In this document: piece by piece, positions 7,117 through 21,298 of the stretch
Layout of the letters: each line of letters opens with the position of its first letter
Numbering within the stretch: position 1 is the first letter of the stretch
Assembly: GCA_040754455.1 (NCBI GenBank)
Contig: JBFMCP010000032.1
Coordinates: 1 to 38,814 of the forward strand
Reading direction: 5' to 3'
From: Nitrospirota bacterium
Lineage (GTDB): Bacteria > Nitrospirota > Thermodesulfovibrionia > Thermodesulfovibrionales > Dissulfurispiraceae
DNA: 38,814 nucleotides
Made by a program: the position numbers and the translations under genes
Notes under the pieces: generated by a model
What the model saw: the letters and a program-made list of their open reading frames with translations, nothing else
The model's database searches: none
What the model was told of the DNA's origin: nothing

Positions 7117-7892
7117 TGGCGAAAAAACATCTCGGACAAAATTTCCTCTTTGACCCCTCGATCCTGACAAGAATCGTAGAAGCAGCAGGCATCAGTGCGG
7201 AGGATACGGTGGTTGAAATCGGTCCCGGCCACGGCAGTCTGACCAAGCTGCTGGCCCTTGCAGCTCGCAAGGTGATCGCCATAGAGCTCGATCCCGAGCT
7301 CTATCAGAAGCTGAGCGAAGACCCCCTCCTCCCCAACAATGTTACACTCGTCTTCAATGATGCCCTCAAATATCGCTATGAGGAGCTGGAATCGTTCAAG
7401 GTCGTCGCCAACATTCCTTACTATATAACCACTCCCCTCATCTTCAGGCTCCTCGATGCAAAAAAGCACATCACCTCCATGACGTTTACCATACAACGGG
7501 AAGTAGCCGAGCGTATCGTTGCCTCTCCGGGCACAAAAGATTACGGAGCGCTCTCCATAGGCGTACAGTTTTATGCGACTCCCCGTATTGAATTTATCGT
7601 TCCCCGCGGCGCCTTCAGACCGATTCCCAAAGTCGATTCCGCAGTGGTCCATATACAGATCCTCGATAAGCCGAGGGTCGAGGTAAGAGATGAGAAGCTC
7701 TTCTTCAAAGTTGTAAAGACCGCCTTTGCACAGCGAAGGAAGACCCTATCTAATGCATTGAAGCCGCTCTCGAAGGACATACGGGAAATGCTCGCTGAGG
7801 CAGGGATAGATCCCATCAGGAGGGCTGAAACGCTGAGCATCGAGGAGTTTGCGAAGCTCGCAGATCATCTCTCAAAGAGACTGTCACAATAG
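7116..7892 (+). CDS. rsmA: 16S rRNA m6,2A1518/1519 dimethyltransferase
   Basis: KKHLGQNFL, VVEIGPGHG, VVANIPYYIT, PKVDSAV, FAQRRKTL. The start ATG at 7116 overlaps the upstream TGA. Confidence 0.97.
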   Translation: MAKKHLGQNFLFDPSILTRIVEAAGISAEDTVVEIGPGHGSLTKLLALAARKVIAIELDPELYQKLSEDPLLPNNVTLVFNDALKYRYEELESFKVVANIPYYITTPLIFRLLDAKKHITSMTFTIQREVAERIVASPGTKDYGALSIGVQFYATPRIEFIVPRGAFRPIPKVDSAVVHIQILDKPRVEVRDEKLFFKVVKTAFAQRRKTLSNALKPLSKDIREMLAEAGIDPIRRAETLSIEEFAKLADHLSKRLSQ

Positions 7893-7893
7893 G

Positions 7894-7960
7894 GAGTCAG
7901 AGCGTCAAAGTACCGATTATTTATATCTTTTCGACCTTTGACTCTTTGACGCTCTGACTC
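7894..7960. terminator. 17-bp perfect inverted repeat between the convergent rsmA and cytochrome genes
   Basis: GAGTCAGAGCGTCAAAG (7894-7910) and CTTTGACGCTCTGACTC (7944-7960), with extra degenerate octamer units. Confidence 0.6.
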
Positions 7961-7980
7961 TTTCTGACCTCACAAAACAG

Positions 7981-9186
7981 CTAACGCTCTAATGTCACCC
8001 GCTTCGTCACCTTGTGGATCGGCACCTTATTTTCAGGCACCTGGAGCTCATAGTTAAGGTCGACGGTGACATCGACGGTCGTGACGCCCTCGGGAAGCTT
8101 GATCTGGAAGGTCTCGTCCTTCGATGCGTACGGTTGAAGCGCTGTGTCCCTTACATACGATGCCTTGTTCTGGGCGCCGTAGACCATCTTCGAATCCAGG
8201 CAGGTCGTTGCCTGGGTATGATAATGCCGCTCATCCTTAAAAATTTCTTTACCGTCCGGCGTCTTTGCGGTCACTTCCATGACCACTCTGTTGTGGGACG
8301 GTCAACCGTCGGGGATTCTGTGTCCGCCGGTATGGCTGATCTTCGTATTCACCACCACCATCGGGTGAAGGTCTTTCGCCTTTCTCAGCCAGGAATAGCC
8401 CAGCGTCTGCACGTCGAGAGTCACTGCTTTCTTGAGCAGCTCAGAGGAGTGTGCTTTATCATCCCAGTTCGGGGCGATGAGGTGGTCGGCCTTGCCTTTG
8501 ACCTTGGGCATATGGCATTCCTGGCACGACTGGAACCCTCCGTGGGAGAGATAATTGTGCTGGTAGCTCCCGTAGAGCGTCGCGCACTGCACCGGGTTCT
8601 CAAATTCGAAATTGGGCCCCGTTCCATGGCACTGGCCGCAGAAGATGGACTGGTCCATCACCGTACTCTTCTTCACTTTTGTAAAGACTTTATCCGGATG
8701 CGAGGGAATATCCTTCGTACTGTAGATCACATCCTTTTCGGGCTTGCCGAGCTGCATCCGGTGGATAATCGCCTTCTCGTTGTGGCAGACGAGACAGGTA
8801 ATCTGAAGTTTGCCGACCTTCCCCTTATCCCCGGCCAGCAACGCCTCGGTCAACTCGACGGCAAAAGAATCCTCGGCAGAAGTTAATGCCTGCGGAAGAT
8901 GGCACTTGAAGCAAGGGAAGTTCTTCATTGTCGCCTGCTTCGGGTCCTTCGGAGCAAAGGGGCTGCCCTTCACCACAGGAACAAGCATCAGGCCGCCAGC
9001 GACCCCCATGAGCGGGCGGGCGTGGTGCGACTTCTCCCATTGAGCATAGATTTCCGCATGGCAGGCCTTGCACCGAGACGAATCGTACATCTTCGCCAGT
9101 TCATCGATCGACTTCGCCTTCTCCGCGTTCACCGCCAAAGGCAAAGCGATGAGAAGGACAGCAAGAATCACAACAACTGCTCTCAT
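7981..9186 (-). CDS. Periplasmic pentaheme c-type cytochrome selenoprotein (ExtKL/MccSep-like), 401 aa with Sec at codon 295
   Basis: Signal peptide and five CxxCH motifs (CKACH, CFKCH, CLVCH, CGQCH, CQECH). ORF 8302-9186 ends HRIPDG-TGA and continues in frame (PSHNR) into ORF 7981-8286. A SECIS-like hairpin directly follows the TGA. Confidence 0.88.
8267..8286 (-). promoter_or_regulatory. Bacterial SECIS-like hairpin
   Basis: mRNA GUGGUCAU-GGAA-GUGACCGC forms an 8-bp stem (two G-U pairs) with a G-initiated loop that begins after 23 nt downstream of the UGA at 8304-8302. Confidence 0.78.
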
Positions 9187-9266
9187 ACCTCCTCCTTTCG
9201 ATATACCTTGTTTCTGACAACTTCCCCGGTCCGAATGTCTGAAGGAACTACTTAGCTTGTAAAAGA

Positions 9267-9295
9267 ATTATCCCACTCTTTGGACCGACTTTCAA
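9267..9295 (-). promoter_or_regulatory. Putative sigma70 promoter of the cytochrome gene
   Basis: TTGAAA (9295-9290), 17 nt ending in TGG, GATAAT (9272-9267). A strong GGAGGAGG RBS precedes the ATG at 9186. Confidence 0.5.
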
Positions 9296-9385
9296 GATGT
9301 TTTCTGAAATAACGTTTTCTTATAATCGGACTTACGCGTTTGGCACCAACAGGCACAGACAGGGGAAAGGATGCCAGGGGTGTTC

Positions 9386-10078
9386 TTAACCTTGCTGCAG
9401 ACTTTTGAGCTGACCGCTGCTCATGCTCATCCGGCGTCCGGCCTCCGCAGCGAGCTCGGTATTGTGGGTAACCATGATAAAGGTAGTTCCCCTTTCATGA
9501 TTCATTTGTTTGAAAAACCGGATCATTTCCGCTTCGGTTACTTCATCCAGGTCGCCCGTGGGCTCATCGGCAAGGATAATCGCCGGATCGTTCATGAAAG
9601 CGCGGGCAATGGCCACCCGTCGCTGCTGCCCCCCGGAGAGCTGCGAGGGATAGGCATCGATTCTGTCGCCCAAACCGACCATGTTGAGCAACTCACTTGC
9701 CTTCATGTCACGGTCCTTTGCCGAGCTGTTTTCCTTCGCCGTAAACAATCCGGGCAGCAGAAGGTTCTCCTTTGCCGTAAGCATGGGCAGCAGGCTGGCA
9801 AACTGGAACATGAACCCCACCCGCTCGCAACGGTATGCAGCAAGTGCGTTACTGTCGAGAGTGTAAACATCGGTGTCCTCGAAGAGTATTCTGCCCGAGG
9901 TAGGTTTCACTATGCCCCCGATAAGGGAGAGCAGGGTGGTCTTTCCCGACCCTGAATGGCCGATTATGGAGACGAATTCGCCCTTGTTGACTTCGAGCGA
10001 CACGGCATCAACGGCGGTGACTACCGCATCCCCGATGACGTACTGTTTCGTTACCTTTTCCAGAAGCACCTGGGGCAT
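9386..10078 (-). CDS. ABC transporter ATP-binding protein, LolD/MacB type
   Basis: [31 protein letters not shown]. Confidence 0.95.
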
Positions 10079-10079
10079 A

Positions 10080-11276
10080 CTACTCTCCTTTTATCGCCGC
10101 CAGCGGCTCCATCCGCTTGATGCGCTGGAGCGGCGAGAGGGCGCCGACGAGGCAGATCCCTGTGCCTATCACAAAACCTGCAAGGGCAACCATGGCGCGC
10201 TCCGTAAGACCCAGGTCCGACGACACACTCTTCAAGATAGTGAAGCTCTTTGCGAGCACCAGCGAGAGTGCCGTGCCCAGGGCGATTCCCAGTATACTGC
10301 CTGCGGCCCCTACCAGCACCACCTCAAAAATAAAGAGCCGCGCAACATGGGCCTCCTTTGCACCGATGGCCCTCATGATCCCCACTTCCCTCGCTCTCTC
10401 GTTTGCGATGGCGGAGAATATGGCCCAGACGAGAAAAGCGGCAAGCACCGAGGCAAGGCCTACCGTGAGGGCGAAGATCTGATTAATATCCCTGAGCGCG
10501 CTAACGAGATTCTTCCCGATGTCCTTTCTCGCGATGGTGTCCACCTCTATTATGGAATTCTCGATCTCGCCGGCTATCCTGTAGGGATCATAGCCTCTCT
10601 TCACCTTTGCGAACATGACCGAAATCTGCCCGGGCTTTATGCCCGATCGGCCTTTCCTTATGATGTCGTCGATATTGCCTTCATCGATAAAGAGGGCAGT
10701 ATCAAGGCCCGTTCCCGTTTTATCGAGCACGCCGACCATCTTGAACACGGTCCCGAACAGTACGCTGTCGACGTCCACAAGCCCCACGCTGATATTGAAG
10801 GCCGACTCGTTACCGACAATCGCCTCCCCTCTTTGGAGCTTTCTTCCCAGCTTCTTGATGAGCCAGGGCTTAATGACAAAGTCGGTATCCTGGTTGAAGG
10901 CGACAACAACCGTTTCGGGGACATCGCAGCAGAGTCCTGCCATGGTGATAAGATAGGTCTGATATGTCACCGCATCAACACCTTCGACCTTCTTTACCCG
11001 TTCCACAAGACCTTTATCCATGTAGAACGATTTCGTCCTGCTCTCGAGCAGCACATCCTCTGCAGCCCCTCTGGCACCCGAGGGCACGATGAGAATATCG
11101 GCACCCAGCCGGTCGGAAGTAAGCTTGATGCTCGCATCGACACGCCTGACAAAGGAAAGGGCAAAGACGAGGGAGGAAACAAACAGACCTATGGCGATTA
11201 TCAGGATCCCGGTCCTGAGCGGCTTTCTCCTGAGGTTCCTGAGCGCAAGCGAAAAGAGGGTGAATTCTTTCGACAT
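10080..11276 (-). CDS. ABC transporter permease, FtsX/MacB/LolC type, with a periplasmic Cys-Cys motif
   Basis: LALRNLRRKPLRT start, one N-terminal TM, a large periplasmic domain containing GLCCD, ERAREVGIMRAIGA, three C-terminal TMs. Confidence 0.92.
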   Translation of the reverse strand: MSKEFTLFSLALRNLRRKPLRTGILIIAIGLFVSSLVFALSFVRRVDASIKLTSDRLGADILIVPSGARGAAEDVLLESRTKSFYMDKGLVERVKKVEGVDAVTYQTYLITMAGLCCDVPETVVVAFNQDTDFVIKPWLIKKLGRKLQRGEAIVGNESAFNISVGLVDVDSVLFGTVFKMVGVLDKTGTGLDTALFIDEGNIDDIIRKGRSGIKPGQISVMFAKVKRGYDPYRIAGEIENSIIEVDTIARKDIGKNLVSALRDINQIFALTVGLASVLAAFLVWAIFSAIANERAREVGIMRAIGAKEAHVARLFIFEVVLVGAAGSILGIALGTALSLVLAKSFTILKSVSSDLGLTERAMVALAGFVIGTGICLVGALSPLQRIKRMEPLAAIKGE

Positions 11277-11352
11277 GATCGGATTATTATAACGGATTTA
11301 GACTCTTCTTTCTATGCGGCTTTCGCCGCATAGAAAGAAGAGTGAATGGAAT

Positions 11353-12495
11353 CTATTTCTTGTACACGCCGTCAAGGCCGCAGAGGATGGAGCTCTTGTC
11401 GCCGAGCCCCATGCCTTTATGACAGGCGAAACAGACCGAGGAAGTCTTGCCGACAACCTTTTTTGCCTCGACATCGTAAAGCTGGAGGGTGCCGTCGGTG
11501 ATCTTCTTGCCGGGAATCGGCTTCCCTTCACCGTCGCAGCCGTCGACATCGGACGTCCTCAGTGTCATAACGACATATTTGCTGTCAGGGGTAGGCATGG
11601 CGTCGTGGTTTTCTCCCCCGATGTTCGTCTTCTCATCTACCATCTTTAGGGTCTTGCCGTCGAGCACCCAGAGCCTGTCGCCGGCGGACTGGAAGATCAG
11701 TTTGTCGTCATGACTGAAGAACTCTCTGAAGGTGATGGTTTTACCCGGAACGCCGGTATGCGTGGCCCTTGCGAGCTCCTTGAACTTGCCTTTCTCAAGG
11801 GCCGCCATGTCGACCAGAATGAAATCCACCTTCCCGTTCGCCTTTCCATCTTCGCCCTTCATGACAACGGTGAGGAGGAATTTTTTCATATCGTTGGAAT
11901 TGATGCCGTGCAGGAATACATAGGTCCCGGACTTATACCCCAGATCACTGATAAACACCCTGTGCTTGTGCGTCAGGGTCGCCTTATCGAACACATCGAC
12001 ATATGCCTCATTGCCCATAAACACCGGCATGAAGTATTTCTTGGTCTGTCCTGATGCACAGTAGAGCGGCATCTTCTTCTCACCGCCAGTAGACCTCGGG
12101 TCAGGGGCCATCGCGACATCCTTGATCACATTGCCGGTCCTCAGGTCGGTCTTGCCGACATGCTGTTTGCCGTTCGGATCGATCTTGTACGTCGACCAGA
12201 ACATGATATTGGGATCATTAACATCGATCCGCGCATCATGGGTAGGATGTGTATTCTTATCGCCGATCACCACCCTGTCGAGACCCGCGACTTTTATCGG
12301 ATTGTCGGCATTGTTCGGATCGATGGTTATGTCCGCCTTTGCAAAGTGGCCGCCCATCCCTGCAATATACAGCGTGCCTGAATACGTTTTTTTGCCTGCC
12401 GCTGCAACAGGTGTCTTGGCGTCAACAACACTGAACACGAGATAGCCGACAAGCGCAACAACCATTACCCCCACTACGATAAAGCTTTTTCTCAT
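11353..12495 (-). CDS. Secreted or membrane-anchored His-rich putative beta-propeller protein with one C-terminal CxxCH
   Basis: Hydrophobic N-terminus; propeller-like repeats (VDVFDKATL, FSHDDKLIF, LWVLDGKTLKMV, PTPDSKYVV, LYDVEAKKVV); CFACH near the C-terminus. The fold is inferred. Confidence 0.65.
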   Translation of the reverse strand: MRKSFIVVGVMVVALVGYLVFSVVDAKTPVAAAGKKTYSGTLYIAGMGGHFAKADITIDPNNADNPIKVAGLDRVVIGDKNTHPTHDARIDVNDPNIMFWSTYKIDPNGKQHVGKTDLRTGNVIKDVAMAPDPRSTGGEKKMPLYCASGQTKKYFMPVFMGNEAYVDVFDKATLTHKHRVFISDLGYKSGTYVFLHGINSNDMKKFLLTVVMKGEDGKANGKVDFILVDMAALEKGKFKELARATHTGVPGKTITFREFFSHDDKLIFQSAGDRLWVLDGKTLKMVDEKTNIGGENHDAMPTPDSKYVVMTLRTSDVDGCDGEGKPIPGKKITDGTLQLYDVEAKKVVGKTSSVCFACHKGMGLGDKSSILCGLDGVYKK

Positions 12496-12654
12496 ATCTC
12501 CTCCTCCCCTGGTTTTAGATGCTTAAATTATGGACAAATCTCTGCACGTGCATTATTGGTAGGTGATTTCTTCAGGACCTCCTTTCACTGTAAATAACTT
12601 ACCTTTTTTAACATACGTCTAAACTCAAGTCAACTTGAAATTTTAAATGTAGTC

Positions 12655-13149
12655 CTAATAGTGATACGGCTTGTCAGGGGCCTTTGTAACCTGCACCCGT
12701 ACCAGCCTCTCGCCTGACCGCTCAAAAATCAGGATAAGGGGTAGTTCAGCACCCTTTTTAATATCCTTGGGAAGCTTGAAAATCATTATATGCATCCCCC
12801 CGGGCTTGAGTTCCACCGTACTGCCCGAAGGTATAGGTAGCCGCTCCTTTTTAATCATTTTCCCGTCCCTGGTGTCGTGCAGCTCAGCAAAGGCGCCCTG
12901 AATGCCTGCCCGCACTCCGACGAGAGCGTCACTGCCATTTCCCGTATTATGGACGCTCATAAATACCGATCCGACGCCGAGCATGGCCGCCGATATCCAG
13001 GCCTCCTGTCCGTCAATAGTGATCTGAGGCTCTCCCCCTGCTCCGCACGCGTTCAGGAAGGTCACCGCCAGAAGAGCGACCAACGCTCCAAGAACGCGAA
13101 TCCATGGTGCACGGGATTTTTTTTGTGGGACAGGCAACAGAAAGCGCAT
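12655..13149 (-). CDS. Copper chaperone PCu(A)C family lipoprotein
   Basis: LNAC lipobox; H-x6-M-x21-H-x-M Cu motif (ELHDTRDGKM...LKPGGMHIM). Confidence 0.92.
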   Translation of the reverse strand: MRFLLPVPQKKSRAPWIRVLGALVALLAVTFLNACGAGGEPQITIDGQEAWISAAMLGVGSVFMSVHNTGNGSDALVGVRAGIQGAFAELHDTRDGKMIKKERLPIPSGSTVELKPGGMHIMIFKLPKDIKKGAELPLILIFERSGERLVRVQVTKAPDKPYHY

Positions 13150-13164
13150 ATATTCCTTAGTCTG

Positions 13165-13626
13165 CTATTTCCGTTTTGGCACAGAGAGCTTGCTATAGGG
13201 AACAACATTTCCCTTACCCGCCTCTGCGACAAAACGCTCGGCGCTCTGCTTGTCCTTGAATGCGATAATGTCGTAGCCCATCGGTGTCTTGACCCCTGAT
13301 TCGACCACAAAAGAGGCGTTTTCGATAGCGACAGACTCTGCGGTGTTGTAATCGAACACCTCCGCATTACTTTCGAAACTCATCAGCTTTGATGCGCACA
13401 GTTCCTCTCTCCAGATGAGGGCGCAGCCGATATCGTCAAATGCGGCCTTTTCGTTGCTTTTTGCATCGACGACCGAAAACCGCTTATTGCTTTCTTCGAT
13501 GTTCATGTTGCATACGCTGCAGACTGCTGGCGGTGCAGCTTCAGCCCTTGCCGGATAGAGCATAATGGGACTACATGATAGGACCGCCGCTAAAAGCAGC
13601 CCGGTGAAAAGATAATATCTTTTCAT
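13165..13626 (-). CDS. NosL-family copper chaperone
   Basis: Signal peptide, CSVCNM, FDDIGC, TPMGYDIIAF...AERF. Confidence 0.88.
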   Translation of the reverse strand: MKRYYLFTGLLLAAVLSCSPIMLYPARAEAAPPAVCSVCNMNIEESNKRFSVVDAKSNEKAAFDDIGCALIWREELCASKLMSFESNAEVFDYNTAESVAIENASFVVESGVKTPMGYDIIAFKDKQSAERFVAEAGKGNVVPYSKLSVPKRK

Positions 13627-13697
13627 AAACGCCTCCCCTCGTTTGTTTTATTTTAATTCATAATGCAGCGCCGGGATTTTTGCTCCTATTCTATATA

Positions 13698-14120
13698 TTA
13701 TGGTTCCTTGAGGACAAGCCGGAGCCTGAAACCAGCATCGGCATACGCATCACGCCGCTTTATCAGAAGCCACTCCTTCTCCTTGTCTTTCATCCTCGTC
13801 AGCACAAAAGCGCCCTTCAGCTTCTTTCCTTTTAACTGAAATTCGATTTTTCCGGCAGCAATGCTTCCGCTTATCAGGGTAAATGAGCCGGTGTCCCATA
13901 TGGCGACCTCCCCGGCGCCGTATAAGCCCTCGGGGATAGTGCCCTCGAAAAAACCGTACTCGAGGGGATGGTCCTCGACCATGACAGCAAGCCGCTTGTC
14001 AGCAGGGTTCATCGAGGGGCCTTTGGGGACGGCCCAGGATTTGAGCACCCCCTCCATCTCGAGCCTGAAGTCAAAATGGAGGTGGCGGGCATGGTGTTCA
14101 TGGACAACAAACTTCGGCAT
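13698..14120 (-). CDS. Standalone LigD-type 3'-phosphoesterase domain protein
   Basis: FVVHEHHARHLHFDFRLE, LKSWAVPKGP, KRLAVMVEDHPLEY, YGAG, IWDTG. Start reset to ATG at 14120. Confidence 0.92.
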   Translation of the reverse strand: MPKFVVHEHHARHLHFDFRLEMEGVLKSWAVPKGPSMNPADKRLAVMVEDHPLEYGFFEGTIPEGLYGAGEVAIWDTGSFTLISGSIAAGKIEFQLKGKKLKGAFVLTRMKDKEKEWLLIKRRDAYADAGFRLRLVLKEP

Positions 14121-14298
14121 ATCATGAGCATACCGAAAAAACGAGGGGGAATGCAAAATTTTCTCATCATAGATAAATGAATGAGGCGTTTGGGACATAT
14201 AATAACCACCACCAGAGGCGGGAACGGATTTCATATCTTATTGTTAACTGTTTTTATTATGTTTTTTATCAAGAATAGTTTAATAGTTTAGAAATCTC

Positions 14299-14328
14299 TT
14301 GACAATCCATCGTATAATCGTATATAAA
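14299..14328 (+). promoter_or_regulatory. Promoter of the ArsR operon, probably giving a leaderless transcript
   Basis: TTGACA (14299-14304), 18 nt, TATAAA (14323-14328). A tandem ATCGTATA repeat overlaps the spacer and -10, and no SD precedes the ATGs at 14330/14336. Confidence 0.55.
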
Positions 14329-14329
14329 T

Positions 14330-14758
14330 ATGTTTATGCAAGAAATGCTCGAAATTCTCAAGCTCCTCTCCGATGAATCGCGGCTCAGGATCCTCATGCT
14401 TCTGGAGAAAAAGGAACTCTGTGTCTGCCAGATCATGGGTGTCCTCAATATTTCACAGCCGCTGGTTTCCCGGAACCTCTCCCTCCTGGCAAAAGCCGGC
14501 TTTCTCAAAGACCGGAGGGAAGGCAAGTTGATGTTCTACAGCGTCAAAAAAAAGCTTCCCCTGAAGCACAATCTCGTCCTGTCGGTCTTGAAAGAGACTT
14601 TAAAGGATGATAAAGTTGCATTGAAAGATGCGGCTTCGCTGAAGGACTGCGAGGAGTTCCAGAAAATTACCGGCAAGTGCGGGATGGAGACGTTCCGCGC
14701 ATACATAGAGCATAAAGAGAAAATGAAAAGGAGACAGAAAAGTGTTGTTGGAATTTAA
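14330..14758 (+). CDS. ArsR/SmtB-family transcriptional regulator
   Basis: LSDESRLRIL, ELCVC, SQPLVSRNL, RREGK..FY, plus two further C-terminal Cys. The true start may be 14336. Confidence 0.93.
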   Translation: MFMQEMLEILKLLSDESRLRILMLLEKKELCVCQIMGVLNISQPLVSRNLSLLAKAGFLKDRREGKLMFYSVKKKLPLKHNLVLSVLKETLKDDKVALKDAASLKDCEEFQKITGKCGMETFRAYIEHKEKMKRRQKSVVGI

Positions 14759-15410
14759 AAAGAAAAGGAGCAGGCTCCAGGCCTATACATGGTATGGACT
14801 CCCCCTGGTCATCATCGGCGGATGGATATACCCGAAGCTCGGATACTTTCTCCTTGCCTGCATGTTCGGCGCCATCGGCATTGCCTTTTACAAAGGCAGG
14901 GCATGGTGTGACTGGATGTGCCCGCGCGGAAGTTTCTACGACCTCTTCTTGCAGAAGATCAGTGCACAGAAAACCATACCACCGCTCTTCAGAAAAAAGA
15001 GCTTCCGCATCTTCGTGCTCGCGACAATGTTGAGCGTTCTCGGCTCCCAGATCTATTTTGCCTGGCCTGATATAGACGGTATAGGCATGGCGATGGTCAA
15101 GCTGCTCACCGTTACGACCATCATAGGCATCATCCTCGGCGCACTCTACCAGCAGCGCGTTTGGTGCCATATCTGTCCCATGGGCACGCTGGGCAACTAT
15201 ATCGCCGACGGCAAAAAGCCGCTCATGATCGACAACTCCTGCATCAGCTGCAAGACATGCTCAAAAGCCTGCCCCATGCAGCTGGCACCCTATCGGTTCA
15301 AAGAGAAGGGCATGATGGGCGACAATGACTGCATCAAGTGCTCCTCCTGTGTCGCCGTCTGCCCGAAAAAGGCGCTTGTTTTCGACGGGTCGATAAAGAA
15401 GGCCGCATAA
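14742..15410 (+). CDS. Membrane 4Fe-4S-binding protein (NapH/MauN-like polyferredoxin)
   Basis: TM helices, CDWMCP and CHICP motifs, two CxxCxxCxxxCP motifs; GTG start after AAGGAG. Confidence 0.88.
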   Translation: MLLEFKKKRSRLQAYTWYGLPLVIIGGWIYPKLGYFLLACMFGAIGIAFYKGRAWCDWMCPRGSFYDLFLQKISAQKTIPPLFRKKSFRIFVLATMLSVLGSQIYFAWPDIDGIGMAMVKLLTVTTIIGIILGALYQQRVWCHICPMGTLGNYIADGKKPLMIDNSCISCKTCSKACPMQLAPYRFKEKGMMGDNDCIKCSSCVAVCPKKALVFDGSIKKAA

Positions 15411-15434
15411 AGAGGTCAGGAGGTTGGTTGAGCG

Positions 15435-16772
15435 ATGATGAAATACGGAATAGTTGCCCTCATGGTGGTCGCCCTGTTTTCAGGCACCGGGTCCTGCGCT
15501 GAAAACAAAGTTACGCTTGCCGAAGCGATCAAGATCGCCCTTGAACGCAACCATGAAATAAAGGCACATCAGCATGCACTCTCGGCACAGTACCAGGACA
15601 TCGGTATCGCCCGGAGCTTTCTGCTTCCGAAAGTAATCTTTGAAGAGCGGTTTCTGCGCACGAATAACCCCACCTATTCTTTTATGGCAAAGCTGAACCA
15701 GGAGCGATTTACGACCGACGATTTTGCCATTGGCTCTCTGAATAACCCGAAGCCTCTGAGCGATTTTCAGACATCCCTCTCCTTTGAGCAACTGCTTTTT
15801 GTCCCCAAGGCAAACGTCGGCCTCGGAATGGCAAAGCTCGAATACGCTGCGCAGGATAATGATTACCGGAGGAAAAGAGAAGAGATTGCTTTTAAAGTAT
15901 CACGGACGTTCCTCATGGTAACTACCGCACAGGAATATGTGAAAGCCGCCCGTCAAACCGTTGAGGATACCAAAGAGCACTTGAGGATAGCGGAATTGAG
16001 GTACGATTCAGGCCTCGGTCTCTATTCCGATGTCTTACGGGCATCGACAGCAGTCACTGATGCAGAGCAGCGACTGGTTAGCGCTCAAAAAAATCTGGAC
16101 GTGGCAAAAAGGGCATTGGGCCTGCTGCTCGGCATGACCGAAGCAGTTGAAGCAGCTGAAGAGACGGTCATGGTACCCCTCATGGACCTCTCCTACTACA
16201 ATAATGCCTCACTCTCGAGAAACGATGTCCGGGCACTCACGGCCCGGTTTGAGAATACAAAGAAGAGCGTGAAACTCGCTGAGGCGGGATACCTTCCCAC
16301 AGTAGGCATCGGCGGCACCTACCAGCTCAACGATCACCGGAAGCCGATCGGATCAGAGGGCGACAGCTGGCAGCTTATGGCATTTCTGAGATGGGAACTC
16401 TTCGACGGAACGAAACGGGAACATGAACGGGCCAAGGCGAAATCACGGGTCGCCGAGACCCAGGAATATCTGGAAGGGCTCAGGGATGCAGTTTCATTCC
16501 AGGTCTATGAATCCTATCTCGGCGTGAACGAGGCAAAAAAAAACGCCGAACTCTCTCAATCAGCGCTCAAAACCGCTGAAGAGGGGAGGCGGCTGGTGCA
16601 GGTGCGTTACGAGAATTCTTTATCTCCACTGATCGACCTTCTGGATGCGCAGACAAGCCTCGACCACGCACGGGCCAGCGCCGTTGCACGGGAGAATGAG
16701 TATACTACCGCTGTTCTCAATCTGAGCTACCAAAGCGGAACGATTCTCAAAGATCTGAAGATAGAGGAATGA
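15435..16772 (+). CDS. TolC-family outer membrane efflux protein
   Basis: TLAEAIKIALERN, duplicated OEP repeats (RYDSGL, RYENSL, DLLDAQ). Confidence 0.92.
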   Translation: MMKYGIVALMVVALFSGTGSCAENKVTLAEAIKIALERNHEIKAHQHALSAQYQDIGIARSFLLPKVIFEERFLRTNNPTYSFMAKLNQERFTTDDFAIGSLNNPKPLSDFQTSLSFEQLLFVPKANVGLGMAKLEYAAQDNDYRRKREEIAFKVSRTFLMVTTAQEYVKAARQTVEDTKEHLRIAELRYDSGLGLYSDVLRASTAVTDAEQRLVSAQKNLDVAKRALGLLLGMTEAVEAAEETVMVPLMDLSYYNNASLSRNDVRALTARFENTKKSVKLAEAGYLPTVGIGGTYQLNDHRKPIGSEGDSWQLMAFLRWELFDGTKREHERAKAKSRVAETQEYLEGLRDAVSFQVYESYLGVNEAKKNAELSQSALKTAEEGRRLVQVRYENSLSPLIDLLDAQTSLDHARASAVARENEYTTAVLNLSYQSGTILKDLKIEE

Positions 16773-16783
16773 TGGAGGAAAGA

Positions 16784-18007
16784 ATGAAAAGGAGTCAGAA
16801 TTCAGAATTCAGAATTCAGAATTCAAAAGCCGTCCCCGACGAAAAACGTCAGAGAGCGCCGCTTCCCTTAAAAGCTCATTCCAGGAATTCAAAAAGTCTT
16901 CTCTTTTTTGTTTTATTCTGGCTTCTGACTTCTGTGATGTCCGGTTGTTCGGACAAGATCAAGCCCGGTAGTGCAGAAGTAAAGCGGCCGGTCGTCACCG
17001 GCATTACCGTCACCGAAGTCAACCCGGCACTGATCGACGATTATTACGAAACATCGGGAACAATCAAGGCAAGAACCATAAGCATGGTCGCCAGCAGGGT
17101 AATGGGGACCGTCACCACGATCAAGGTGCGGGAAGGCGACAGGGTCCGTGCAGGGCAGGTGCTGATGACCATCGACGACAGGGACAGCGCGCAGCGGGTC
17201 CGTGCTGCTGAAAAGGCCCTCGAGGCGGCGGAGCAGCAGCGGTCGCTTACCGATATCACCTACCAGCGATATAAAAAGCTGTATGACGGCAGGGCAGTAT
17301 CCCGGCAGGAGCTCGATCAGATCGAAACCGGGAAAAAGGTCGCCGAGAGCGAGTACGAACGGGCAAAAGCGATGCTCGCCGAAATGCGGATCAACCACGG
17401 CTTTTCGCGGATCACTGCCCCGACATCGGGTGTGGTGACCGAGAAAAGAATAGAAACCGGCAGCATGGCGGTGCCGGGGACGCCGCTCCTCGTTGTCGAA
17501 GACACTTCCTCATATCAACTTGAGGCACACCTCGACGAGAGCATCCTGAACAGGATCAGCATGGGAATGCCCGTTACGGTCATCATCGAATCGATAGGAA
17601 AACAGATCGAAGGCAGGGTTGTGGAAATCGTCCCCTCTGTTGATCCTATGTCACGGACCTTTCTGGTGAAAATAAGTGTTGCGGGACCGCTCCTGAAAAC
17701 AGGACTCTATGCAAAAGCACGGGTACCAGTGGGAAAAAAAGAGGCGATAGTCGTGCCTGAGCGCGCCGTGGTCGAAAAAGGGCAGCTCACCGGCGTCTAT
17801 GTCGTCGATTCGCAGGGAATCATTTCCTACCGGCTGGTGCGATTAGGCAGGAATTATAACGGCGTTACTGAGATCGTATCCGGATTGAATCCCCGTGACA
17901 GCGTCATCATCGATGGTACGAACAGGGCAATCGACGGCGGCATCGCACGCAATGTTCAGCGCATAGCCTCCGGGAACACTGCGCCTTCCGCTGCACCGCA
18001 GAGGTAA
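16784..18007 (+). CDS. RND efflux periplasmic adaptor (MFP) lipoprotein
   Basis: MSGC lipobox, V.EGD.V.AGQ.L lipoyl half-motifs, ITAPTSGVV, VDPMSRTF. ATG at 16784 follows GGAGG (alternative start 16769). Confidence 0.92.
   Translation: MKRSQNSEFRIQNSKAVPDEKRQRAPLPLKAHSRNSKSLLFFVLFWLLTSVMSGCSDKIKPGSAEVKRPVVTGITVTEVNPALIDDYYETSGTIKARTISMVASRVMGTVTTIKVREGDRVRAGQVLMTIDDRDSAQRVRAAEKALEAAEQQRSLTDITYQRYKKLYDGRAVSRQELDQIETGKKVAESEYERAKAMLAEMRINHGFSRITAPTSGVVTEKRIETGSMAVPGTPLLVVEDTSSYQLEAHLDESILNRISMGMPVTVIIESIGKQIEGRVVEIVPSVDPMSRTFLVKISVAGPLLKTGLYAKARVPVGKKEAIVVPERAVVEKGQLTGVYVVDSQGIISYRLVRLGRNYNGVTEIVSGLNPRDSVIIDGTNRAIDGGIARNVQRIASGNTAPSAAPQR
16795..16934. repeat. Heptamer tandem repeat (TCAGAAT x4) with an inverted degenerate counterpart, inside the 5' end of the MFP gene
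   Basis: TCAGAAT x4 at 16795-16822; ATTCTG GCTTCTG ACTTCTG at 16915-16934. Confidence 0.8.
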
Positions 18008-18013
18008 TCATCG

Positions 18014-21000
18014 ATGAGCGTTGTCGGCATCGCAGGCAAAATAGCAAAGACGTTCATCAAATCCAAGCTCACCCCGCTGATCGTCATCGCATCGCTCATT
18101 CTCGGCGTATTTGCCGTCATCGTTACCCCCCGTGAAGAGGAGCCGCAGATCGTCGTGCCGATGATCGATGTGATGGTCGCCTATCCCGGCGCCTCAGCAA
18201 AAGAGGTGGAGGAACGGGTCACGAAGCCGATGGAGAAGTTCCTCTGGGAGATCAAGGGCGTAGAGTATGTTTACACCATCTCCAAACCCGGCATGAGCAT
18301 GGCGATCGTCAGGTTCTATGTCGGCGAGGACATGGAGGACAGCATCGTCAAGCTCTACAACAAACTGATGTCCCATTACGATAGGATACCTCCCGGCGTG
18401 TCCCAGCCGCTGGTGCGCCCGAAGTCGATCGATGATGTTCCCATACTGACGTTTACTCTCTGGAGTCAGCGCTACAACGGGTATGAGCTGAGGAGAATTG
18501 CGACCGAGGTCTGTGATGAATTGAAAAAAGACCAGGACATCTCGGAGTTTACGGTAATGGGGGGCCAGAAACGCCAGGTCCGCATCGATATCGACCCCGT
18601 GCGCCTCAGGGCTTATTCTCTGGCTCCCCTGCAGATCGCAGGAATGCTGCAAAAGGCCAATTTCATGCTGCCGTCAGGCGCCTTCTTCAACAAGAACAAG
18701 GAATTTCTCGTCGAGACCGGCGCATTCCTCAAAAACGCCCAGGAAGTAGGAAATGTGGTTGTCGGCATCTCAAACAGCAGGCCTGTCTACCTGAGGGATG
18801 TGGCAAAGATCAGCGACGGTCCCGAAGAGCCGTCGAATTATGTGTTCATGGGCTTTGGCCCTGCCTCACTAAAAAGCAGCGAGTATGCCTCTCCGCAAAA
18901 CAGCACCGGACAGTATGAGGCGGTTACCATCGCCATCGCAAAGAAGAAGGGGACGAATGCCACCCACATCGCCGAGAGAACGCTGAAAAAGATCGAAGCC
19001 ATCAAAGGGACTATTATCCCCTCAGGAGTCGAGATAACCACAACGCGGAACTACGGCGATACGGCAAAGGAGAAGTCCGATGAGCTCCTCGAGCACATGC
19101 TCATCGCCGCCATATCAGTAACTATTCTTATCGCCCTTGCCCTCGGCTGGCGGGAATCCATTGTCGTTGCCGTCGCAGTGCCCGTCACCCTTGCGCTTAC
19201 TATCCTTGTAAATTACCTGTACGGCTACACGCTGAACAGGGTGACGCTCTTCGCGTTGATCTTTTCGATCGGCATTCTTGTCGATGACGCCATTGTGGTG
19301 GTCGAGAATATCCACCGCCACTTCAAGATGGGCAGCATCGATACCGAAACAGCGGTGAAGGCGGTCGATGAAGTGGGCAATCCGACCATATTGGCGACCT
19401 TCACGGTCATCGCCGCGCTGCTGCCCATGGCATTTGTCTCAGGACTTATGGGTCCTTACATGCGTCCCATCCCTGTCGGCGCCTCTGCGGCAATGCTGCT
19501 TTCACTGCTCATCGCCTTCATCATCAGTCCGTGGTTGAGCTACATCGTCTTAAAGGGAACAAAGAAGGAGGAGGGCGACAACAACGCCAAGGATGAAAGC
19601 AAAATCATCGGTGCGCTGAACCACCTCTATGAAAAAAATCTCAGGGGTCTCCTTGAGAGCAAGAGGAAGCGGCTCATGGGGCTCCTGCTCGTTCTTCTGC
19701 TCCTGGGAGGAGCAATGGCCCTGGTGCCGTTGAAGCTCGTTACCGTAAAGATGCTCCCTTTTGATAACAAAAGCGAGCTGCAGGTCATTATCGATATGCC
19801 CGAGGGGACAACGCTCGAGGAGACAGCGGCATTGACCCGCCAGGTCGGCGACTATCTCACAACCGTTCCTGAGGTTACCAACTATCAATCGTACGTCGGA
19901 ACTGCAGCTCCCTTTAACTTCAACGGCCTCGTCCGCCACTATTTCATGCGGTCGGGGAGCAATTCGGCGGATATCCAGGTCAATTTCGTCGCGAAAGATA
20001 AACGGAAGGCCCAGAGCCACGATATCGCCAAGCGACTGAGATCCGAGATCAAGAAGATCGGCGACCGTTACCATGCACGCATCAAGGTGGTCGAAATTCC
20101 TCCGGGTCCTCCGGTGCTGAGCACACTCGTTGCCGAGGTCTACGGGCCGGACTTTACGAGACAGATCGAGATAGCGCAGCAGATCAAGGAGGTATTCGAA
20201 AAAACCGGCGGTGTTGTTGACGTCGACTGGTACGTCGAAGACGATCAGAAAAAATTCTGGTTCGATGTCGACAAGGAAAAAGCCGCCTATAACGGGATAA
20301 GTACCGATACCGTTGCGCAGACCCTCAGGACAGCCATCGGCGGCAGTAGTGCCGGACTGGCCCATGTGGAAAAAGACAAGGAGCCGGTGGAGCTGTTTAT
20401 GCGGATGCCGTTCTCCGAGCGAACGAGTGTTGCGGACCTGCAAGAGGTAACGATTCCCTCGAGCTCAGGCGCTCTTGTCCCCCTCTCCGAGCTGGTCACC
20501 ATGAAGGAGCGCATCGAGGACAAGACCATCTACCGGAAGAATCTCAAACGGGTGGTCTATGTGACCGGCGATGTGGCGGGCACTGAGGAGAGCCCGGTCT
20601 ATGCCATTCTGAAAATGAAGGAGATGATCAAGAACCTCAGGCTGCCCGAGGGATACGAGCTAAAGCAATACTCAGCGGTCCAGCCGTGGCTCGAAGATAA
20701 ATATTCGATGAAGTGGGATGGCGAGTGGCATATCACTTATGAGGTCTTCAGGGATCTCGGTATCGCCTTCGCAGCGGTGCTGATATTGATTTACATAATG
20801 GTCGTCGGCTGGTTCAGGTCCTTCATCATCCCGATCGTTATTATGGCGCCGATTCCCCTGTCGCTCGTCGGCATCCTGCCGGGGCATGCAATCATGGGAG
20901 CCTTCTTTACCGCAACCTCGATGATCGGATTCATTGCGGGAGCAGGCATTGTCGTGAGGAATTCCATTATTCTCGTTGATTTCATAGAGCTCAAGCTCTC

Positions 21001-21298
21001 CGAAGGCATGGAGCTGAAGGAGGCGGTGGTGCAGGCAGGTATCATCCGGTTCAGGCCCATGTTGCTGACTGCGGCGGCAGTCGTGGTAGGTTCATCGGTC
21101 ATACTGTTCGATCCCATATTCCAGGGTATGGCGATCTCCCTGATGGCCGGAGAGGTCGCATCAACGCTGCTCTCGCGGACCATGGTGCCCGTTCTCTATT
21201 ACATATACAAAGATTGGGAAATAAACAAGAAACGGAAAGAAGAGGAACGCGCTCAAACGGCTGCTTACTGCGGCATCAGCCGATCAGAGCAGCCCTGA
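18014..21298 (+). CDS. RND efflux permease (AcrB/CusA superfamily)
   Basis: 1094 aa; [34 protein letters not shown]. Confidence 0.96.

Follow-up and report, generated by a model that had tools for sequence, protein, structure and literature searches.

In the octahaem sulfite reductase MccA, a Cu(I) bound by Cys lies next to a haem c, and the enzyme has a NosL-type partner. It is listed as a haem c-copper enzyme among the references of PMC13510729. In the sections of the same paper that are cited here, MccSep (ExtKL, GSU2937-2936) of Geobacter sulfurreducens is described as a periplasmic homotetramer with five haems and one selenocysteine (Sec) per subunit; it reduces polysulfide and, less well, selenite, it is required for S0 respiration, and its electron donor is given as unidentified (PMC13510729). 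Thiocyanate dehydrogenase (TcDH) hands its electrons to a c-type cytochrome, as stated in the part of PMC9456337 used here. Finally, clade III nosZ clusters, according to the part of PMC13685413 used here, lack nosDFYL and encode a MacB-type ATP-binding cassette (ABC) transporter that may replace it, which is a precedent for the arrangement that we propose in this study. The locus in question lies on a contig of a Nitrospirota bacterium (family Dissulfurispiraceae; assembly GCA_040754455.1, contig JBFMCP010000032.1), of which the whole stretch analysed, positions 1 to 38,814 (38,814 nucleotides), is called the window in what follows. A first reading of this DNA (hereafter the original prediction) had noticed six co-oriented genes, and we indeed recovered all six open reading frames on the minus strand, between positions 7981 and 13626: they encode a NosL-like protein, a PCuAC-family protein, a haem propeller protein that we call PROP, an FtsX-type permease, an ABC ATPase and a Sec-containing multihaem cytochrome.

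Our analysis divides this region into two units, a PROP cassette with its copper chaperones and a neighbouring selenocytochrome gene. We hold, with moderate confidence, that the cassette would encode a new periplasmic haem/copper enzyme, PROP, matured by a MacB-type ABC transporter in a way analogous to the maturation of NosZ by NosDFY and NosL. The host genome (G000) is an assembly of 92 contigs, with an estimated completeness of 100% and a contamination of 2.05%.

The PROP family and its cassette

PROP carries a single CxxCH motif (CFACH, at residue 355) and 11 His. It matched no Pfam or NCBIfam model at E<=0.01; against the PDB sequences it gave only a chance match to a WD40 protein (E 0.26), and a profile search of the PDB returned nothing significant. 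Its homologues number 1089 at E<=1e-3. The best 120 of these are 63-100% identical to PROP over almost the full length, and wherever the source names them it does so as "hypothetical" or "uncharacterized". Only 124 clusters at 50% identity match PROP in a library that covers 1.84 billion representative proteins, and our literature search found no description of either the family or the cassette. By these sequence comparisons, PROP belongs to an undescribed family that has neither a name nor a domain model nor a solved structure.

The AlphaFold2 model of PROP (pLDDT 90.8 and pTM 0.86, from a 29-sequence alignment) predicts an N-terminal helix (residues 3-23) and 24 strands arranged as six four-stranded blades, with no cupredoxin domain. 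In the last blade, two strands are separated by a short helix (355-362), and it is this helix that bears the CxxCH. The model of PROP available from a protein atlas is also a propeller, with a TM of about 0.6 to YncE-like proteins. As the modelled protein has an N-terminal helix, which is replaced in more distant homologues by a lipobox Cys, PROP appears to be tethered to the membrane, on the outer face of the inner membrane. When PROP was submitted to a fold search, six-bladed YWTD domains came out best (Z 26.5); the longest alignments included those with TcDH (288 residues, Z 21.0) and NosZ (285 residues, Z 18.7), and Foldseek against the PDB returned generic propellers. Because neither NosZ nor TcDH is outstanding among the propeller matches, the fold alone cannot assign the cofactor of PROP.

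The residues that are invariant among 30 cassette-linked members include H50, H83, H86, H112, C146, M160, K171, H196, R257, H297, R313, C355, C358, H359 and C372; beyond the haem motif there are thus six His, two Cys (C146 and C372) and one Met (M160). From the secondary-structure string only, and assuming the usual propeller topology and taking the N-terminal strand as the closing strand of blade 6, we infer that most of them would lie at the starts of the A or C strands or at the ends of the D strands, on the same face as the haem loop.

In order to describe the surroundings of PROP, one genome per species was scanned, which gave 138 confirmed loci, and the best 80 were kept. Their genes were annotated with hidden Markov models (HMMs) derived from our own BLAST clusters, each named after the Pfam hits of one representative or after the corresponding window gene. 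An FtsX gene directly follows PROP, on the same strand and within 400 nt, at 58 of the 69 loci that extend at least 1.5 kb downstream. Where at least 3 kb were available on both sides, 37 of 56 loci have a NosL, PCuAC or Trx/Sco-like gene within 6 kb of PROP; by type, NosL is counted 19 times, PCuAC 17 times and Trx/Sco 11 times, and an FtrD-like membrane protein 11 times. The conserved unit is PROP-FtsX-ABC. NosL and PCuAC are never found together at the 80 loci, as expected of alternative suppliers, and both were seen only in the window and in the same-genus genome G202. PROP without an adjacent FtsX was found at 10 loci; of 15 residues checked, none is changed in eight of these copies, while the remaining two retain 13 or 14. 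In at least four cases, the assembly of such a solitary copy also has a full cassette (L021/L037, L025/L013, L043/L038 and L047/L016). The pairwise identities of PROP and FtsX are correlated (r 0.92, Mantel 0/999), but we give this no weight, because vertical inheritance would produce such a correlation between any two genes.

PROP was found in 56 of the 401 genomes sampled from the window's phylum, as well as in Desulfobulbales, in Caldimicrobium and in some archaeal assemblies. The carriers that have a name, Desulfurivibrio dismutans (loci of strain AMeS2 among them), Caldimicrobium and Candidatus Sulfobium, are sulfur-cycling anaerobes, and a rhodanese gene is present within 6 kb of PROP at 5 of the 80 loci.

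Some members of the family depart from this simple architecture. The longer homologues P0122, P0125, P0164, P0206, P0208 and P0209 have an N-terminal fn3 or Big_2 domain, or a caspase domain, which gives no functional clue, and several other homologues of 700-950 aa match PROP in three stretches. A PROP-like frame of 45% identity (G251:C32:118444-119493) is interrupted by seven in-frame TGA codons, which may point to a pseudogene or else to an oddity of assembly or recoding.

Copper chaperones, the ABC transporter and a proposed maturation of PROP

The NosL-like protein of the window scores 46.4 bits against PF05573 (cut-off 24), and none of the NCBIfam models matched it. A lipobox-like VLSC can be read in its sequence, and C36, C39 and M41, which make up a CxxCxM pattern, as well as M116, are each present in at least 85% of 20 cassette-linked homologues. 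PCuAC, the sole member of its family in the genome, scores 82.9 bits against PF04314 (cut-off 29.4); H91, M98, H120 and M122, which we take to be its copper ligands, are conserved among 19 homologues.

The original prediction had remarked that the window holds no nosZ and no CuA oxidase subunit. Profile searches extend this to the whole host genome, where no COX2/CuA domain was found and where nothing, PROP included, matched the NosZ models TIGR04244 and TIGR04246. Furthermore, in three other carriers (an Anaeromyxobacteraceae assembly, Desulfurivibrio dismutans and a Caldimicrobium) no NosZ scored above the model cut-off. The chaperones thus do not track nos or cox genes, as the host has neither NosZ nor COX2 and these three carriers have no NosZ above the cut-off; the possibility raised beforehand, that they follow nosZ or cox genes elsewhere, was looked at and the outcome speaks against it. 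It had also been predicted that the copper client is encoded inside the cluster, as the propeller, the selenocytochrome or both. This idea survives for PROP, which is the best candidate because it is the recurrent partner of the chaperones across phyla, in a genome devoid of classical clients; it is not supported for the selenocytochrome, an unlikely client, since the solved structure of its family is described with five haems and one Sec.

Other genes of the copper type were encountered. Contig C8 of the host (8486-15244, minus strand; L009:3487-10245) carries a second copper-type cluster, whose genes encode two NosL proteins, a permease of the FtsX/MacB_PCD type, an ABC ATPase, a membrane protein of 336 aa that belongs to no family, a SCO1/SenC protein and a 591-aa protein that has one CxxCH and a weak match to periplasmic binding proteins. 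At Desulfobulbales loci, PROP has beside it a comparable module, made up of NosL, Trx/Sco-like, FtsX and ABC genes plus one for a membrane protein of some 340 aa. Finally, in genome G378, a frame recognised by the NosL HMM (L105:3184-4347, contig C87) lies beside one of two ExtKL copies, and PROP is on another contig.

The permease scores 66.8 bits against PF02687 and the ATPase 123.5 bits against PF00005; the best NCBIfam model for the latter is LolD, at 224 bits, below its cut-off of 307.75. In its AlphaFold2 model the permease has four long helices (19-57, 255-293, 308-344 and 357-387), of which the first and second are separated by a domain of mixed alpha/beta structure, and its fold matches are LolCDE, MacB, HrtBA, YbbAP, BceAB and FtsEX. 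On this model, permease and ATPase are assigned to the type VII, mechanotransmission-type ABC systems. The predicted periplasmic domain of the permease contains a pair of cysteines, Cys116-Cys117, between strands 100-112 and 122-127. Of 55 PROP-adjacent homologues 98% have this pair, and no member of the 30-sequence alignment departs from it.

In the scheme that we propose, PROP would carry a single haem of the c type, on a blade 6 loop, and its haem-side face would hold a copper-containing redox site, either haem/Cu or multi-Cu. NosL and PCuAC, as lipoprotein chaperones, would pass Cu(I) to the MacB-type transporter; in its periplasmic domain, the invariant Cys-Cys pair of the permease is a candidate binding site for Cu(I). 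The ATP-driven movement of this domain could then load, open or activate PROP, as NosDFY does for NosZ, and the haem of PROP would link the site to periplasmic cytochromes, possibly MccSep. Concerning the substrate, the nature of the carriers, the rhodanese neighbours and the association with ExtKL (see below) point to periplasmic sulfur chemistry.

Several observations weigh against this scheme. The invariant residues near the haem of PROP are placed there by blade topology alone. In the fold search, the top scores went to YWTD propellers, which have six blades and no metal, and the copper propellers are not outstanding among the other propeller matches; the profile match between PROP and TcDH is not significant (E 0.46-0.61). 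Moreover, a chaperone-like gene within 6 kb of PROP is missing at 19 of the 56 well-flanked loci. Elsewhere the host genome encodes a small cupredoxin and a multicopper-oxidase-like protein, so that the chaperones may have other clients. Lastly, lipoproteins, haem and peptides are also among the substrates of type VII ABC systems, and copper delivery is therefore one option among several for this transporter.

Some of these points would also suit a PROP that contains haem only, a sulfur-handling cytochrome or carrier for which the ABC system would supply or remove a hydrophobic or membrane-associated substrate (sulfur or polysulfide), or which it would switch mechanically, the chaperones then serving other clients or binding another thiophilic species. 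In this case the invariant C372 and C146, close to the haem motif, could provide a His/Cys ligation of the haem, which is known from sulfur-converting cytochromes (PMC13510729, in the sections cited here). The sulfur-cycling lifestyle of the named carriers, the rhodanese genes at a few loci, the action of type VII systems on lipoproteins and haem and the loci without a nearby chaperone-like gene are all in line with it. Nevertheless, three unrelated families of copper chaperones recur beside the cassette in different lineages, six invariant His exceed the needs of a haem pocket, and the genome lacks the usual clients of PCuAC. We regard a haem-only PROP as a doubtful alternative to the haem/copper enzyme.

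If PROP is indeed a haem/copper enzyme loaded by its transporter, it would be the second case, after NosZ, of a periplasmic metallocentre assembled with the help of an ABC system, and the MacB-type machines would gain a role beyond efflux, lipoprotein extraction and cell-wall signalling. It would also explain the role of copper chaperones in strict anaerobes, and sulfur reducers and disproportionators, in which some redox steps of periplasmic sulfur (or nitrogen) compounds are still unassigned, would have a concrete candidate for them. Carried to its full extent, the proposal would make PROP the founder of a class of haem c/copper enzymes in anaerobic sulfur-cycling bacteria and archaea, loaded with copper through the Cys-Cys pair of the ABC system, acting on small sulfur species (sulfide, polysulfide or similar, or alternatively N2O where nosZ is missing), exchanging electrons with MccSep, and accounting for a missing periplasmic step of sulfur disproportionation or respiration. 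In this complete form we consider the proposal speculative and unlikely.

The selenocytochrome and its relation to the cassette

The window cytochrome scores 461.4 bits against NF040886, "multiheme c-type cytochrome (seleno)protein ExtKL" (cut-off 250; 454.9 bits in the genome scan), and matches the MccSep chains of PDB 9wt9/9wt8 with an E-value of 1.4e-69. Like MccSep it has a signal peptide and five CxxCH, and its Sec motif, GHRIPDGUP, is that of the published Sec peptide of MccSep: the in-frame TGA at 8302-8304 encodes U295, which corresponds to U325. The haem-2 motif is kept, as is the Cys that ligates this haem (C201, equivalent to C239), and the Lys of an NKAS sequence aligns with K372, the catalytic Lys of MccSep. 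At the UGA we found a hairpin resembling a selenocysteine insertion sequence (SECIS), with a minimum free energy of -23.9 kcal/mol (z -3.0), a stability reached by none of 200 shuffled sequences, and the host genome encodes a tRNA-Sec (C31:38631-38728). An Rfam search of positions 7800-13800 gave no match. On the basis of its sequence, the protein is a member of the ExtKL/MccSep family and is probably a polysulfide-type reductase, which places the Sec cytochrome of the window in a newly characterised polysulfide reductase family.

The window cytochrome also shows differences from MccSep. The anion-site Arg (R83 in MccSep) is replaced by Gly in the window protein, in the region of residues 60-70, and in the same-genus copy, whereas the nine other copies among the 11 aligned have Arg; and the porin and rhodanese neighbours are missing, since Pfam and similar annotation of the window found no porin, rhodanese or cytochrome b genes, as the original prediction had said. 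In the sections of PMC13510729 cited here, the R83A substitution lowers the activity of MccSep, and R83 is not given as family-defining. The Ig-like domain at the C terminus is also shortened in the window cytochrome and its same-genus relative, and the window protein is 47-48% identical to syntenic copies from other genera. Judging from these alignments, a known family gains a new member here, in which the anion-site arginine has been lost as a variation at the genus level. The Gly at the R83 position and the shorter Ig-like domain may mark a shift of substrate in ExtKL proteins of the window type.

A second and more canonical ExtKL copy (600.7 bits) is present in the host genome on contig C49 (11504-14974; L010). 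It is accompanied by two small secreted proteins and a porin-like protein of 453 aa, which matches PF07396 weakly, and its opposite flank is occupied by a Crp-family regulator; this arrangement is closer to the Geobacter ext cluster than that of the window copy.

Does the selenocytochrome belong with the cassette? The original prediction suggested a periplasmic haem/Cu/Se redox system; read strictly, the six genes would form one obligate system, in which the selenocytochrome and the propeller cooperate and one or both receive copper. The same six-gene order is indeed found in the same-genus genome G202, and shorter versions that end in ExtKL are found in G181, G090 and G384 and at L013, L020, L022 and L028. 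Within the window's family (f1), PROP and ExtKL are adjacent in five of the seven PROP-bearing genomes (G000, G202, G090, G181 and G384); of the two exceptions, G013 lacks ExtKL, and G378 has the two genes on different contigs. By a hand count of two tables, ExtKL occurs anywhere in the genome in 42 of 56 PROP-bearing genomes versus 90 of 345 PROP-free ones (132 of 401 in the phylum), a comparison that overstates the association since the genomes are related.

The remaining evidence is unfavourable to an obligate six-gene system. When recurrence of the gene neighbourhood was checked, PROP-FtsX-ABC was seen to recur with chaperones, but ExtKL was within 6 kb of PROP at just 5 of the 80 loci. 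No adjacency was found outside f1 among the 150 of 173 ExtKL matches listed for the 401 genomes of the phylum, and at E<=1e-30 ExtKL is missing from 14 of the 56 genomes with PROP. In f1 the locus has a recognisable frame, namely RND-MFP-OEP, sometimes a NapH-like gene, ArsR, the LigD 3'-phosphoesterase gene, the cassette or nothing, ExtKL, and RsmA. Four PROP-negative genomes of f1 (G178, G214, G055 and G150), selected for an ExtKL match that seemed to be of this subtype, all have ExtKL at this same place between ArsR and RsmA, in the absence of any cassette (4/4). As the place of ExtKL is constant when the cassette is missing, ExtKL is best seen as the resident of the locus and the cassette as an insertion or deletion beside it. 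In addition, the Results and Discussion of PMC13510729 report no copper in MccSep and describe its structure with haems and Sec only, and the ABC and ExtKL genes of the window are separated by a gap of 199 nt that contains a promoter-like site. The claim of a single obligate six-gene system is thus not supported, and we hold it to be very unlikely.

Pure coincidence, which the original prediction had conceded as a possibility, does not describe the situation fully either. In f1 ExtKL keeps its place without the cassette, as just seen, but three loci argue against chance alone. L028 has PCuAC-PROP-FtsX-ABC-ExtKL without any of the frame markers searched. At L022 (5913-15030), PROP-FtsX-ABC is duplicated in tandem and followed by ExtKL. 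At L062 (6798-14038), in a Caldimicrobium, hence in another phylum, the order is ExtKL-ExtKL-PROP-FtsX-NosL-ABC on one strand, with the two ExtKL genes directly upstream of the others, which is an independent juxtaposition. We therefore read the relation between PROP and ExtKL as a facultative functional association and not as an obligate system: ExtKL is probably a facultative neighbour with its own position and its own promoter, not a copper client, and it is possibly a redox partner of PROP.

The frame of the f1 locus bears on one more interpretation, in which the cassette would be a device for the detoxification, sequestration or acquisition of copper in a sulfidic periplasm, with PROP binding copper or converting its redox state and the ABC system moving it. 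In the window's family, genes for an ArsR/SmtB-type regulator and for efflux (OEP-MFP-RND) do adjoin the cassette, the genome has a second cluster of the order NosL-NosL-FtsX-ABC-SCO1 on contig C8, and the Cys-Cys and His-rich motifs would suit metal binding. However, the synteny with ArsR and RND is limited to close relatives, belongs to the ExtKL locus and is present without the cassette. Besides, a covalent haem c and a high conservation (at least 63% identity among the 120 best homologues) fit an enzyme better than a buffer, and the cassette has no outer-membrane partner. We find such a copper-handling device distinctly unlikely, and prefer for the cassette the reading as a haem/copper enzyme with its maturation system.

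The features of the region are given in Table 1. From the NosL-like gene to the cytochrome gene, the successive gaps are 15, 159, 76, 1 and 199 nt. The original prediction had mentioned a 200-nt gap and an apparent promoter of its own for the cytochrome gene; the gap is confirmed, and a consensus scan, on which the promoter assignment is based, found in it a site with 10 of 12 consensus matches and a TG extension.

Table 1. Features of the PROP cassette and of the neighbouring selenocytochrome gene (window coordinates)
Feature	Position	Strand	Remarks
NosL-like Cu(I) chaperone-like protein, probably lipoprotein	13165-13626	-	153 aa, PF05573
PCuAC-family Cu(I) chaperone	12655-13149	-	164 aa, PF04314
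PROP, secreted mono-CxxCH protein	11353-12495	-	380 aa, CFACH 355-359
FtsX/MacB-type (type VII) ABC permease	10080-11276	-	398 aa, PF02687
LolD/MacB-like ABC ATPase	9386-10078	-	230 aa, PF00005
ExtKL/MccSep-family five-haem selenocytochrome	7981-9186	-	401 aa, U295, NF040886
SECIS-like hairpin	8251-8302	-	starts at UGA; apical stem-loop 8267-8286, loop GGAA
Promoter-like site in the gap before the cytochrome gene	9267-9295	-	consensus scan only

Next to the cassette, at 13698-14234, a gene of 178 aa encodes a stand-alone LigD 3'-phosphoesterase domain; it occupies the same spot in relatives, except in G178 where only a remnant is left. Beyond it, positions 14330-21298 hold the ArsR/SmtB-type regulator, a NapH-like polyferredoxin membrane protein and the OEP-MFP-RND efflux system, transcribed divergently. 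Since this block adjoins ExtKL even in genomes without the cassette, it may belong with the cytochrome.

Comparison with known copper and haem systems

NosZ with its NosDFY-NosL apparatus is the system to which the cassette would be the functional analogue. In both, a periplasmic propeller with His-lined hub residues (modelled, in the case of PROP), a dedicated ABC transporter and a NosL-type chaperone are encoded together. NosZ is a seven-bladed propeller with seven His ligands for CuZ and a CuA cupredoxin domain, whereas PROP has six predicted blades and, instead of that domain, a haem c; the ABC system of the cassette is of type VII (FtsX), unlike NosFY with the NosD beta-helix protein. A direct identification was tried for both components and rejected. 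PROP is not a NosZ, as it matches neither TIGR04244 nor TIGR04246 nor any Pfam family and its model has six blades and no cupredoxin domain. Neither do the genes encode a NosDFY complex: no NosD beta-helix and no ABC-2-type NosY family was found among the six, and the permease is of the FtsX type, so that the analogy is functional only.

TcDH resembles PROP as a periplasmic propeller, and it gives the longest structural alignment reported above, at 15% identity. It is unlike PROP in being a tricopper enzyme with seven blades and no covalent haem, and in coming from aerobic sulfur oxidisers. As for MccA, compared here by description only, it is an all-helical multihaem protein, whereas PROP would be a mono-haem propeller; still, it offers a precedent in sulfur metabolism for the pairing of haem c with Cu(I)-Cys, and PROP has two invariant non-haem Cys, C146 and C372.

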